Shown in pieces: positions 2,504 to 10,461 of a DNA stretch of 32,000 bases. Positions within the stretch are counted from its first letter, which is position 1. Each line of letters opens with the position of its first letter. The DNA is from Candidatus Harpocratesius repetitus. GTDB taxonomy: Archaea > Asgardarchaeota > Lokiarchaeia > Sigyniarchaeales > Promethearchaeaceae. The stretch is taken from the NCBI GenBank assembly GCA_021498095.1, contig JAIZWK010000001.1:2550001-2582000 (forward strand). Reading direction: 5' to 3'. The notes beneath the pieces were generated by a model. That model was not told the origin of the DNA. It ran no database searches and worked only from the letters and a program-made list of their open reading frames with translations. A program made the translations under genes and the position numbers.

Positions 2504-4090
2504 TCAAGGAGAAAAATTATCTAATTCTTTTTCTAAATTTGGTGTAATCCCCCCATGCTTGGATAGTCGATCACTTCTAATTTTTGTTGGTAAACTTAGT
2601 AATACTGAAGGTCCAAAAATGAAAGCTTCACCAGGAGATAATGATCTTATTTGAATTAAATCTGAATCACTGATATATTCAGATATACCCTTTACATACC
2701 TTTGATCATCAGGGTTAGTCAATCTCATTACAATTTGAGTATTGCATTGTGAAAGGACGTCAGAGTCTAATCTACTAGGTCGTTGACTTACTACACCCAT
2801 GCCCATAAGAAATTTTCTACCTTCTTGAGCTAATCTTTTAAGTGCAGGTTTGCTAGCGGAACTTTCAGCACTTCCTGGAATAAATCTATGAGCTTCTTCA
2901 AAAATACATAAAGCGGGAGGTAATTTTCTAAAAATTCGCTCATTTAAGATTTTTTCAGTGATCATTGCTACAAAAGCTTGCTGATATACATTAGATAAAT
3001 TACTTAAATCCATAATAGAAATTTGACCTTTTTTCACAATTTCTTTATAATCTAAAACTTTATCATTTACTTCTTTCTGTAAGAATGGGGTATGAGTAAT
3101 TAATAATTTGAATTTCTGTATCAAAGTTTTTTTTGCTGTTTTTGTCGAAACATCACTATTATTACATACTTTTGTGAAGTCCTCTAAAACTTGAAAATCT
3201 CTACCTTTGTTTTCAATTTTAAAATCACCCCAAACATCTTGTAATATTCGAGTTTGTGCTTCACTTAATCCATACAATGTGTTTAACAAATAAGAAATTT
3301 GATAATATTCCATTTCTCTAACTCTTGTGGCAATTCTAACAGAATTTCTATCGAAATCATACTTTTTTTTAAAATTTTCATCAATTATATTAATAACTTG
3401 AGAATTGCCTGTTGTAAATATTTTTACACTTGAAGAAAAATAACTATCTTTTGGATTTTCAGGTATTTTCAATGTAGAATACTCACTATGTGGATCAAAT
3501 ATAATAATCGGAAAATCAGGTATTGCTTCTTTTAATCTTTCAATTATTGTTGCAACTGTCCATGACTTTCCTGCCCCAGTCATTGCTAATATAGCAAAAT
3601 GCATTGATATTATTTTTTCAACATTAACAAAAATTGAAATTTCTTCATTTTGGATAAAATTTCCAATTTTAATGCAAGTTTCATCATTGAATGATAATTG
3701 CTCTTCTAAGAAAGATGGAGCAACTAGAAATACTTTACTACCTAATTTTGGAGGAACTTTCTTTCTAACAAAGATAGAGTTTTTGAGATTTGGATTTCTT
3801 CTTCCAATGACTTCTACTTTGCATACTAAGTAATCTTCAAAATCGCCAATAATTGCTTCGCGTTCTATATCATCATTTTCAAAAATCGTTGTTAAATTTA
3901 CCGCACCATTTTCATTTATTAATGGATTTGAACTTTCTATTGAGGAGATACGACCTAATTGCCGAAAATTATCTGAATAAAATTCAACTATATCCCCTAA
4001 TGATAACCTTAATCCAGGTTTTGATACGAAATTAAATTGTGAAAATCCTTCTGTTTTGAATATTACACCAATCATCTTTTTTGATTTCAT
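2504..4090 (-). CDS. herA: HerA-family ATPase/helicase with N-terminal HAS barrel
   Basis: HFAILAMTGAGKS (Walker A), IFDPHSEY, IFEEAHRF (Walker B), EGRKF...VSQRPS.LD..VLSQCNTQI.MRL.NP.D. ATGA overlap with nurA at 4087-4090. Confidence 0.93.
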   Translation of the reverse strand: MKSKKMIGVIFKTEGFSQFNFVSKPGLRLSLGDIVEFYSDNFRQLGRISSIESSNPLINENGAVNLTTIFENDDIEREAIIGDFEDYLVCKVEVIGRRNPNLKNSIFVRKKVPPKLGSKVFLVAPSFLEEQLSFNDETCIKIGNFIQNEEISIFVNVEKIISMHFAILAMTGAGKSWTVATIIERLKEAIPDFPIIIFDPHSEYSTLKIPENPKDSYFSSSVKIFTTGNSQVINIIDENFKKKYDFDRNSVRIATRVREMEYYQISYLLNTLYGLSEAQTRILQDVWGDFKIENKGRDFQVLEDFTKVCNNSDVSTKTAKKTLIQKFKLLITHTPFLQKEVNDKVLDYKEIVKKGQISIMDLSNLSNVYQQAFVAMITEKILNERIFRKLPPALCIFEEAHRFIPGSAESSASKPALKRLAQEGRKFLMGMGVVSQRPSRLDSDVLSQCNTQIVMRLTNPDDQRYVKGISEYISDSDLIQIRSLSPGEAFIFGPSVLLSLPTKIRSDRLSKHGGITPNLEKELDNFSP

Positions 4091-5253
4091 AAATATTCCC
4101 TTATTTTATTTTGTTCAAAAATTTGTAAAACATCAAAAATTTCATTTTTTTTACAGTTATTAATAAAGAAGTATTCTAACAAAGAAATTAATTTCCTACC
4201 TTGAATTTTTGTCATTGTTATTTTCTTGTGAGCATAAATTAAAGGCAAAGGATAACCCAATATTGTTGAATTTCTTGAAAAATAATAAAGTGAATCTAGA
4301 ACCTTTTTTTTTCTAGAATCCTCGGAAATTGCCCATTTAGGTATTTCTACAAAATAAAAATTGTTTGATTTATCAATTTTATAATACATTGCAAGAATAT
4401 TCTCATTGTCTAAATCTTTAATTTCAGTTTTACCTCTTAATCCATATTTTTCTGATAATACAACAAAGGGTGTTCGATATGAGCCTTTCTTATTTTTAAA
4501 TATATAATTGATAATACTTTGTTCATTCATTTTTATAGGATCTATTTTATTTATCAATTGTTTGATTGTCTCATTATATTCATTTTTTTGCATTAGAAAT
4601 TTATCTATTTCTGATATGGTCATTTGATTCAATATTTTTTTTTGTGCTAATAGATATTTATTAGAAGTAGGTTGTTTTATCACAGCAATTAACCCAATTT
4701 TCAATCTTCTAATCATTGAAAACAATTCATTTGCAATTTTCTTATATTCATCAATTGCTAATTTTAGCTCGTTATCGAATTTTGTTTCGTTAAAATTAAA
4801 ATTCATTTTGTTCGGATATGATATTGATCCGTCGATAAAAATAATATCAATATTAATCCCGTTTTCTAATGATTGATTCAATGCAGCCAAAATTGATTTA
4901 TATTCAATTACTTTTTGGTAAATCGAATGAATGAAGTCAGAATTATAATTGTTAGTAATTGTATATTTAGATAGAAATTTGATTCTTTTTTTTTTGCTTT
5001 CATATACTCCTGCAGCAGCAAAACTAATAGCAAAACTTCTAAAATTTTGTTTAATCACTGTTCCATCCGTAACTAAATAATTAATTTCTGGAACGTTTGA
5101 ACTAGGTTTAAACGGAATAAGATAATTATCAGAATATTCATTTGATAATTTATGATATTTTTTTATGTCTTTAATAAGAGACTTACCTTGGTTTAAAAAG
5201 AAATTGAAAAGTTCTAACCTAAAACTTCTTATATCGTTATCATAAATATACAT
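4087..5253 (-). CDS. nurA: NurA-family 5'-3' nuclease
   Basis: LVTDGT, IFIDGSI, IAVIK and GYPLPLIYAH motifs; coupled to herA; GGAG upstream. Confidence 0.85.
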   Translation of the reverse strand: MYIYDNDIRSFRLELFNFFLNQGKSLIKDIKKYHKLSNEYSDNYLIPFKPSSNVPEINYLVTDGTVIKQNFRSFAISFAAAGVYESKKKRIKFLSKYTITNNYNSDFIHSIYQKVIEYKSILAALNQSLENGINIDIIFIDGSISYPNKMNFNFNETKFDNELKLAIDEYKKIANELFSMIRRLKIGLIAVIKQPTSNKYLLAQKKILNQMTISEIDKFLMQKNEYNETIKQLINKIDPIKMNEQSIINYIFKNKKGSYRTPFVVLSEKYGLRGKTEIKDLDNENILAMYYKIDKSNNFYFVEIPKWAISEDSRKKKVLDSLYYFSRNSTILGYPLPLIYAHKKITMTKIQGRKLISLLEYFFINNCKKNEIFDVLQIFEQNKIREYL

Positions 5254-5272
5254 ATCAATTCTCCAAATTATT

Positions 5273-9439: not shown

Positions 9440-9441
9440 TA

Positions 9442-10461
9442 TTAGACCTCCATTATTGGTTGAATAAACATCAAATCGCTAGATATTAAAGGTGTTCCAA
9501 TACTTCCATTTACGAATTGATAATCTTTTGAATTTTTTACAAAACTTTTAATTGAACTTAATAAGTGCTTTTTCAAATCGAAACTTGAATCTAAATTGTC
9601 AAATGAGTGATAATTCTCATTAATTAGATAATTTAATAAATTCTGTGTTTTGATAATTTCCTTATCTTCAAGATATTCTTTTATTTGATTATTGATTATA
9701 CTCTCTCTTATATCTCTAAAAAATTCTGATTTTATTTTGAATTTAGATTTAGAATCTTCGAATTTGTTGACTATTGAATTTATTGAAAGACCAACAGATA
9801 AACAAGAGTCAACAGATTTTTCATTAAATAGGGGGTGAGTTACGTTTCTAATTGAATAGATTGTCAATTCTGCTTCAAGTTCCTCTTTATTATAATAATT
9901 TATTGAATGTGTTTTTAAAAAATCAATGGCAATTCGATAATGGAGCTTTCGATTATAAAATAAGTTATGCAAAAAAATATTAAATGGCTTTAGAATTTCA
10001 AAGAATTTTTGCCTTCTATTTAATCCCTCTTCAGAATTCAAATCAAAAAAATTTTTTCTTTTTTCTGATTTTTTTTTACTGGAATAATAATCATAAAACT
10101 CGTTAATTTTTTTTTGAGGAAGTAATTTTTCTAATTGATTAAAATTCCTATTAAACTCAATAAAACTGTCTAATTTAGGTTCAGATGATTTTTTTTTTTT
10201 GTTTTTTAACTCAACTAATTCAATTTCATCTAAATTCATTATTATAGCTCTATATGGATCTCTCACTGATGATCCACCGCTATGTTTAAATGGGAGGTCT
10301 TCAATAATATTTCTAATTTCATAAGTTTTAATTTCTTTTTCTTTCTTGTTCTTAATTAATAATAAAATAAATTCATACCAAGTAGAATTGTTAAGAGGTA
10401 CTGTCCAAGAATATCCCTTCATTTTTTTGATCTTTCCTATTAATACTATTTTATATTTCAA
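9442..10461 (-). CDS. Unknown protein, first gene of the ATPase-NurA-HerA operon; possibly tandem winged helices; likely start ATG at 10422
   Basis: Long ORF whose stop lies 2 nt before the ATPase ATG. In-frame ATG at 10422 is preceded by AGGA. The fold assignment is a guess. Confidence 0.65.
   Translation of the reverse strand: MKYKIVLIGKIKKMKGYSWTVPLNNSTWYEFILLLIKNKKEKEIKTYEIRNIIEDLPFKHSGGSSVRDPYRAIIMNLDEIELVELKNKKKKSSEPKLDSFIEFNRNFNQLEKLLPQKKINEFYDYYSSKKKSEKRKNFFDLNSEEGLNRRQKFFEILKPFNIFLHNLFYNRKLHYRIAIDFLKTHSINYYNKEELEAELTIYSIRNVTHPLFNEKSVDSCLSVGLSINSIVNKFEDSKSKFKIKSEFFRDIRESIINNQIKEYLEDKEIIKTQNLLNYLINENYHSFDNLDSSFDLKKHLLSSIKSFVKNSKDYQFVNGSIGTPLISSDLMFIQPIMEV

Follow-up and report, generated by a model that had tools for sequence, protein, structure and literature searches.

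What is a NurA-HerA pair doing behind a giant ATPase, in a stretch of DNA that holds no Mre11 or Rad50? This question is raised by 32,000 nucleotides (nt) of the contig JAIZWK010000001.1 of the Asgard archaeon Candidatus Harpocratesius repetitus (positions 2,550,001 to 2,582,000; hereafter the window). A preliminary description, made from the letters alone, had placed four coupled minus-strand genes at 2504-10461, encoding a small protein, the giant ATPase, NurA and HerA, and had proposed that they form a repurposed, paralogous resection machine. Its layout stands, as to reading frames, strand and spacing: 2 nt separate the small-protein gene from the giant gene and 19 nt the giant gene from nurA, while nurA and herA overlap by 4 nt, which is consistent with a coupled operon. 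Neither an Mre11-type phosphoesterase nor a Rad50/SMC protein was found by Pfam scans of the roughly 30 open reading frames (ORFs) in the window, again as described. The four-gene block has a GC content of 24.8%, against 31.0% for the genome, and falls in the lowest 0.28% of the genome's 8-kb windows. The analysis below extends the unit to a neighboring TGT-fold transglycosylase gene and its partner, and most likely what we have here is a so far undescribed system, restriction-modification-like, linked to DNA modification and built on a HerA pump.

The 4.36-Mb genome contains other copies of both genes, so that the window pair is not its only herA and nurA. A second NurA (NurA2) is encoded beside a Ras-like GTPase gene, and there are several further HerA-like genes, the best of which, HerA2, adjoins an aminotransferase gene, Cdc48 and FEN1 being encoded nearby. 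A search of the genome with the Rad50 zinc-hook family gave no match; a Rad50-like gene was found instead beside an Mre11-like gene. Where the preliminary description had envisaged a single housekeeping herA-nurA-mre11-rad50 locus, the genes all exist, but in Harpocratesius they occupy three separate sites. NurA2 has relatives in 252 of 300 other Asgard genomes, and its identity to them tracks taxonomy (53% and 48% within the genus, 42% and 37% within the family, ~30% within the order). HerA2 behaves in the same way, with orthologues at E<=1e-60 in 122 of 150 other Asgard genomes and identities of 69% and 62% within the genus. The window NurA, on the other hand, has relatives in only 4 of the 300 genomes, none of them from its own genus, family or order, and the window HerA has orthologues in 2 of the 150; for the giant ATPase, a search of 399 other Asgard genomes yielded no genuine match. 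Window HerA and HerA2 are 29% identical. Orthologues of NurA2 and HerA2 are neighbors in several other Asgard genomes (e.g. G117, G002, G004 and G005), which indicates that a housekeeping pair exists in the phylum and was split in this lineage. The window NurA-HerA pair is thus neither orthologous to the lineage's vertically inherited resection module nor linked to mre11-rad50. On these sequence comparisons, we regard NurA2 and HerA2 as the vertically inherited copies and the window pair as a rare, horizontally spread extra copy, distinct from the DNA-repair housekeeping machine. The idea of a paralogous, patchily distributed pair has therefore held up.

About 60 protein clusters are related to the window HerA, at identities of 34-48%; their named sources are Aenigmatarchaeota, Lokiarchaeota, Thermoplasmatales, Methanobacterium alcaliphilum, Bathyarchaeia and Heimdallarchaeum aukensis. 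A tree of 122 HerA sequences unites them in a single clade of 61 rows with an SH-like support of 100; HerA2 falls outside it, and all the HerAs with a known TGT-linked context fall inside. We examined ten related loci, nine being the contexts of members of this clade and the tenth a locus of genome G117 (L045), with sources in Methanobacterium, Bathyarchaeia, Heimdallarchaeum and metagenomes. Every one of them has a co-directional block of a TGT-like gene, a small gene (252-293 residues), a giant gene (1159-1583 residues), nurA and herA, so the five-gene core crosses phyla and the two genes upstream of nurA-herA are conserved beside them. In L045, the closest Asgard relative of the system, with a HerA about 45% identical to that of the window (47%; 44% by tblastn), the TGT gene lies 3' of herA rather than before the small gene and is followed by a 436-aa ORF; the linkage therefore withstands rearrangement. 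No TGT-less locus was found among the ten. Since the window TGT is homologous to those of the relatives (1e-27 in a direct test), the TGT and DUF6884 genes next to the four-gene block (10882-12951) belong to the system, and by this sequence evidence the unit would comprise at least five or six genes, TGT included.

Within this common plan the loci vary. The TGT gene lies within about 100 nt of the small gene in most relatives; in the Heimdallarchaeum locus (L025) they are separated by a pair of short ORFs, of which one is transposase-like, and a Bathyarchaeia locus (L024) has a 414-aa gene without a family match at this place. In six loci an extra gene of 180-245 residues stands between the giant gene and nurA (Table 1). 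The one in L018 shows homology (4e-24) to the last 170 residues of the L019 giant, which is unsplit; at least in L018 it is therefore a split-off domain, and the giant exists in fused and split forms. Searching with this C-terminal domain gave no usable lead. A stand-alone DUF5591 (ArcS core) gene precedes the TGT gene in six loci (L018, L019, L021, L023, L026 and L028), while in L029 a DUF6884 gene occurs together with a second TGT gene, and L024 has, beside the system TGT gene, divergent genes for QueC and a QueT-type transporter. Two possible equivalences were rejected for lack of any similarity, namely that the DUF6884 gene corresponds to the first gene (236-262 residues) of the DUF5591-type loci and that the TGT resembles DUF5591. 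The flanks of the relatives encode UvrD with a PD-(D/E)xK nuclease, a restriction-modification methylase, McrB, GmrSD, HEPN, HNH, NERD and OLD-like ATPases.

The window TGT matches the Pfam TGT family at 2.5e-16, and its only solved sequence relative is the archaeosine TGT of P. horikoshii, 1iq8 (5.9e-10). Residues D103, D143 and D274, a CxCxxC motif and a His align with positions of 1iq8, which we take to be the catalytic aspartates of the archaeosine enzyme and its zinc ligands. The C1-C3/PUA domains, which bind tRNA at the C-terminal end of that enzyme, have no counterpart in the window protein. The closest of the system TGTs is that of L029 (36.5% identical, 2e-71); matches to all the others range from 1e-12 to 1e-30, and the match to the genome's own archaeosine TGT (arcTGT) is 3e-9. 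Besides this arcTGT, which is full-length and separately encoded, the genome has genes for an ArcS-like protein and for QueC, which implies that tRNA modification is already covered and that preQ0 is available. The partner protein matches DUF6884 (PF21818) at 2.6e-25 and PF03883 at 1.3e-6, the latter under the Pfam cut-off, and among PADLOC models it matches PDC-M57A at 7e-22 and DpdC at 2.4e-5. It has the CxxxK (SCTKKK) and LSAxxG-like (VSAKYG) motifs, of types described for DUF6884 proteins (PMC11701544). Judged by these matches, it would be related to the DpdC (DUF328) family rather than a member of it. DUF5591 is absent from the window, its place being taken by DUF6884. In L019, the DUF5591 protein retains the ArcS2 motif PC-x3-KPY-x2-S-x2-H, and ArcS2, a stand-alone DUF5591 protein, is known to yield dG+ in DNA together with DpdA (PMC10516641).

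The motor and the nuclease have intact catalytic motifs. The window NurA has the features of its nuclease family (PF09376 at 1.9e-12), whose profile here matches Sso NurA 2ygk at 7.8e-13; D63, E117 and D141 are invariant in our alignment, most rows of which also share H342, part of an AHK motif. It matches no PADLOC model. The window HerA likewise has the features of the HerA family, with a match to PF01935 (HerA/DUF87) at 7e-36, a Walker A motif GAGKS and a Walker B motif EEAH; a HAS-barrel match is weak and sub-threshold (0.018). PADLOC HerA models match it at 3.5e-57 and the 'Type III coevolved' model at 1.3e-25. Its nearest solved structure is 9x1l_A (3e-49), which bears the title 'DNA helicase'; the same entry includes a 5'-3' nuclease 'encoded next to Rad50 and Mre11 homologs'. 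Sulfolobus HerA 4d2i comes next at 1e-33, and several other HerA-named entries match at about 1e-30.

The giant ATPase is a less familiar protein. Pfam places a P-loop (AAA/nSTAND5) at residues 27-122, and in the family the Walker A residues G50, G53, G55 and K56 and the Walker B residues D107 and E108 are invariant. It matches the giant protein of the relatives at 8e-23 over about 840 residues, with 31% identity to P0135. The AlphaFold2 model of residues 1-720 has a mean confidence (pLDDT) of 61, reaching 70-88 over most of residues 20-435, and its best Foldseek matches are to Orc1/Cdc6 proteins (7e-8 to 1e-7 over about 430-460 columns), covering an AAA+ base, a lid and a winged-helix domain; matches among AFDB clusters include ORC1-type, Mrr-fused and STAND-type ATPases. 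BrxC_BrxD matches 5 of the 10 giant family members weakly, at best 5.8e-4. A word-indexed search of 5.8 billion proteins gave zero matches, and an exhaustive HMMER search gave five true relatives only, besides fragments of the same or near-identical sequence; the family profile found nothing in PDB sequences beyond P-loop matches, and PADLOC offered no significant match, its DpdH model reaching 0.017 on the P-loop. For the small protein, neither a Pfam family nor a significant PADLOC match was obtained. It is homologous to the gene at the same position in the relatives (1e-4) and fits the family alignment, which favors an ATG start at 10422 over the TTG, and the family has a conserved C-terminal motif, F-PG-PRPPIPS-HT. 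Its AlphaFold2 model is confident only for residues 150-339, where residues 156-250 and 250-339 each form a winged helix-turn-helix (wHTH) fold (Z 8.8-9.7). HTH_45 matches two family members weakly, and the family profile gives weak MarR-type matches at most among PDB sequences. ESM Atlas leads to FokI recognition domains, AlwI and a DpdG-like protein were set aside as too weak to count as evidence. As modeled, the ORC/Cdc6-like AAA+ of the giant and the tandem wHTH of the small protein would fit a role as DNA sensor or loader; that they take the place of Mre11/Rad50 in loading HerA-NurA, as the preliminary description proposed, would be a further step.

These similarities bear on the possibility that the locus has no immune role and is a paralogue devoted to DNA repair or replication restart, or else a maintenance module of an integrated element in which an ORC/Cdc6-like initiator is combined with a HerA pump. 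The repair-type proteins are indeed the nearest to the window NurA and HerA (helicase_HerA at 2e-61, 9x1l_A as above), ORC/Cdc6 proteins are replication initiators, and low GC and patchiness would suit a mobile element. We nevertheless consider it improbable: the NCBIfam helicase_HerA match amounts to 208 bits against an equivalog cut-off of 970, the housekeeping orthologues are encoded elsewhere in the genome, scans of the window and the related loci revealed no gene for an integrase, a capsid or replication, and the flanks consist of defense genes.

Considering the ten loci together, we lean, though not strongly, towards the interpretation that 2504-12951 is one six-gene accessory conflict system with a restriction-modification logic, marking self DNA with a 7-deazaguanine. 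The accessory status follows from the patchy distribution, the clade support of 100 and the GC step between block and genome; the defense setting follows from the defense genes that flank the relatives and from the McrC-fragment, KAP/Mrr-like and DUF2400-nuclease genes of the window; and the reading as a marking module is suggested by the ArcS core or QueC/QueT carried by relatives and the DUF6884 carried by the window and L029. It can be envisioned that the TGT swaps guanine in DNA for preQ0 supplied by the genome's own QueC pathway, and that the DUF6884/DpdC-like protein converts or reads the inserted base, with ArcS2 at that place in relatives. In this way the cell's own DNA would come to carry a 7-deazaguanine derivative as its mark. 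The small protein, with its tandem wHTH, and the ORC/Cdc6-like giant would bind and scan DNA, using ATP to license an attack where the mark is missing, upon which a HerA hexamer would pump the unmarked DNA through a NurA dimer that degrades it. The chemistry of the mark, the means of telling self from non-self and this order of activation are all predictions of the scheme. Its specific core, that an archaeosine-TGT-derived enzyme writes a chromosomal mark and that NurA-HerA, licensed by the giant and its wHTH partner, destroys whatever lacks it, is put forward more tentatively, as a proposal that falls a little short of an even chance.

The same two base-directed proteins could also be imagined to work in the opposite sense, as a type IV-like defense in which TGT and DUF6884 recognize or excise 7-deazaguanines of viral DNA, and the resulting lesions or gaps serve as entry points for NurA-HerA. 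Glycosylases against 7-deazaguanine-modified phage DNA (Dag) are known as defenses (bioRxiv 10.1101/2025.10.29.685425), DUF6884 has been modeled as a base-flipping, lesion-binding protein (PMC11701544), and a glycosylase-like DUF2400 nuclease gene and an McrC fragment adjoin the locus. However, the intact-motif ArcS core of the relatives and the QueC and QueT genes beside a system TGT make sense only for the writing of a mark, and in the window TGT the site of base exchange is fully retained, zinc site and all. We therefore think the type IV-like scheme unlikely.

Several observations weigh against the self-marking reading. DNA as the substrate of the TGT is a prediction from domain loss and context; the system TGTs have no significant match to the PADLOC DpdA model, the one relative that comes near reaching 0.0071. 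The window NurA has Q194 (in KQP), against KD(S/T/A) in each of the other eleven sequences of the NurA alignment, both system-linked and housekeeping, a replacement that might weaken the nuclease. In the giant, residues ~440-1388 (~950 residues, mostly helical) have no domain assignment. Finally, the two halves of the locus differ. The TGT gene and the small gene are 420 nt apart in the window, and this spacer carries one arm of an inverted repeat (123 nt, 94% complementary, plus 28 nt) that brackets the TGT, DUF6884 and McrC-fragment segment, the partner lying beyond the McrC fragment; two further copies of the repeat occur elsewhere in the genome (Table 1). The bracketed TGT and DUF6884 genes have a GC of 31-37%, against 24.8% in the four-gene block, and the nearest relative of the TGT is of the DUF6884 type (L029), as opposed to the DUF5591-type L019/L026 for HerA, NurA and the giant. 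From the inverted repeat, the GC step and the discordant nearest relatives, the modification cassette seems to have been swapped into the Harpocratesius locus, and TGT-DUF6884 and the four-gene block may be a recent, possibly imperfect pairing in this genome. The spacer, the GC step and the discordance are also what speaks for a four-gene NurA-HerA machine acting independently of TGT and DUF6884, with the ATPase and the small protein as its sensor or loader, as the preliminary description had allowed. That suggestion is not supported by the comparison with the relatives, in which a TGT of the same clade sits inside the block in ten loci out of ten, once permuted, and we hold an independent machine to be quite unlikely.

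Other genes of the window deserve mention (Table 1). The DUF2400 (glycosylase-like) nuclease gene lies 352 nt past the herA stop codon, convergent with the operon, and was not found in the two genomes of the same genus; its product could be a further base-directed defense protein. The 148-aa ORF between the repeat arms matches only positions 232-318 of the 318 of the McrBC component model and is probably, by this partial match, a truncated McrC remnant within the bracketed segment. Further along, another candidate defense protein of the same island, 858 aa long, combines an AAA_16/KAP P-loop with a C-terminal wHTH and weakly matches the nuclease family Mrr_cat_2. Two NosD/right-handed beta-helix proteins, whose genes contain long in-frame repeats of 69 nt, are probably located at the cell surface and have no part in the system.

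Table 1. Coordinates of the system genes, their neighbors and the genes compared with them; positions are those of the window unless a genome or locus is named.
Feature	Position	Strand	Basis or remark
HerA hexameric translocase/helicase, 528 aa	2504..4090	-	PF01935; distinct TGT-linked clade
NurA-family nuclease, 388 aa, predicted effector	4087..5253	-	PF09376
Giant ATPase, 1388 aa	5273..9439	-	N-terminal ORC/Cdc6-like AAA+, lid, WH-like domain
Small protein, 339 aa from TTG, predicted DNA-recognition subunit	9442..10461	-	tandem winged helices
Spacer between TGT gene and four-gene block, holds inverted-repeat arm	10475..10708	.	repeat comparison
TGT-fold transglycosylase, 441 aa, without tRNA-binding C-domains, DpdA-like by predicted function	10882..12207	-	Pfam TGT
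DUF6884 / YaaA-DpdC-like protein, 245 aa	12214..12951	-	PF21818; predicted base modifier or DNA-base reader
Partner arms of the inverted repeat	14252-14374, 14401-14428		
Further repeat copies	genome 3430067-3430170, 3432216-3432319		
DUF2400 nuclease, 417 aa	899-2152	+	
ORF of 148 aa, probable McrC remnant	13343-13789	+	
NosD/beta-helix proteins	17468-18730, 19036-21786	+	
KAP/Mrr-like protein, 858 aa	22395-24971	-	candidate defense gene
NurA2, 531 aa	genome 1403619-1405211		
HerA2, 578 aa	genome 3937672-3939405		
Mre11-like (545 aa) and Rad50-like (899 aa) pair	genome about 4092684-4097026		
Related locus L045	G117:C1:2601000-2619000		
QueC and QueT-type transporter (Bathyarchaeia)	L024:640-1775		divergent beside TGT
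Extra gene between giant and NurA	L018:8303-8860		
Extra gene between giant and NurA	L021:8296-8859		
Extra gene between giant and NurA	L025:8146-8883		
Extra gene between giant and NurA	L026:12232-12774		
Extra gene between giant and NurA	L029:8165-8869		
Extra gene between giant and NurA	L045:5340-5969		

This gene set was not described in the literature searched. Closest to it among published systems are the HerA/FtsK capture systems, discussed below, and the Dpd system (dpdA-K) of Salmonella Montevideo and other bacteria (PMC10164549; Thiaville 2016). Like Dpd, the window links a TGT-family enzyme and a DUF328-related (DpdC-like) protein to a restriction side of ATPase and nuclease in a genomic island, and the predicted chemistry, a preQ0-derived DNA mark, is the same. 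Unlike DpdA, the window TGT comes from the archaeosine-TGT lineage and has no significant match to the DpdA model. Neither a ParB-like DpdB nor the DpdD-K families turned up among the window ORFs, and the restriction side consists of NurA-HerA, the ORC/Cdc6-like ATPase and the wHTH protein in place of the DpdD-K helicases. Any likeness of the small protein and the giant to DpdG and DpdH comes down to the P-loop match of 0.017 and the language-model lead already discounted.

The BREX-Related Capture (BRC) system, reported in 2026, has PglZ, a BrxC-like ATPase, a STAND NTPase, DUF4007, HerA/FtsK, GNAT and TGT, and was reported without DpdC (PMC12839542). An ORC/Cdc6-type AAA+ paired with a wHTH protein has already been described in HerA/FtsK 'capture' systems (PMC10853773, PMC12839542), whose defining combination of pump, ORC/Cdc6 AAA+, wHTH protein and nuclease (PMC10853773) is found in the window. 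The locus shares with BRC and capture systems a HerA/FtsK-superfamily pump, an ORC/Cdc6-type AAA+, a fast-evolving multi-wHTH protein and a nuclease effector, as well as a sparse, cross-phylum distribution that includes archaea; with BRC it also shares the TGT. It differs from BRC in that tests for the BRC components failed in the window and the scanned family members, with no PglZ, separate STAND NTPase or GNAT, and no sequence match to DUF6079 or DUF4007, the weak BrxC_BrxD matches in half of the giants being the nearest approach. It differs from both in having a true HerA, nearest to repair HerA rather than to a DndH-like pump, a DpdC-like or ArcS-core partner, and a NurA effector, a word absent from PMC12839542 and PMC10853773. 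The REase/iREase domains of capture systems were not seen, and NurA would fill the nuclease role.

Three further comparisons can be made. The archaeal HerA-NurA end-resection complex has the same families in adjacent, coupled genes with intact motifs, and the motor-nuclease mechanism is presumably shared. Unlike that complex, the window pair is non-orthologous to NurA2/HerA2, patchy, never beside mre11-rad50 and always beside TGT and giant genes. Pairs of DpdA and ArcS2 (DUF5591) in Vibrio phage nt-1 and Sulfolobus virus STSV2 (PMC10516641) resemble the short TGT and stand-alone ArcS core, with its PC-x3-KPY motif, of our relatives, but the viral pairs protect viral DNA and come without NurA-HerA, and the window has DUF6884 instead of DUF5591. 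In Sir2-HerA, DUF4297-HerA and CRISPR-associated HerA/NurA, HerA is a scaffold or motor of an immune effector, and the PADLOC HerA models match the window protein accordingly; unlike in those pairs, there is no Sir2, DUF4297 or cas gene among the window ORFs and no CRISPR-like array in the window, and NurA lies outside the PADLOC models.

A review of 2026 treats Asgard NurA/HerA paralogues, including two NurA of Heimdallarchaeum, as double-strand-break repair genes (PMC13748450). If at least one NurA/HerA clade belongs to a mobile system tied to DNA modification, as our results suggest, the annotation of these paralogues changes, and with it their use in arguments on the origin of eukaryotes. 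Should the proposed mechanism be true, 7-deazaguanine marking of DNA would reach archaeal chromosomes, beyond bacteria and viruses, and the locus would represent the first cellular archaeal restriction-modification system based on 7-deazaguanine in DNA and the first immune role for NurA. NurA-HerA would then join the immune effectors, and the locus would be a compact example of how cassettes for modification, sensor and effector are shuffled independently.

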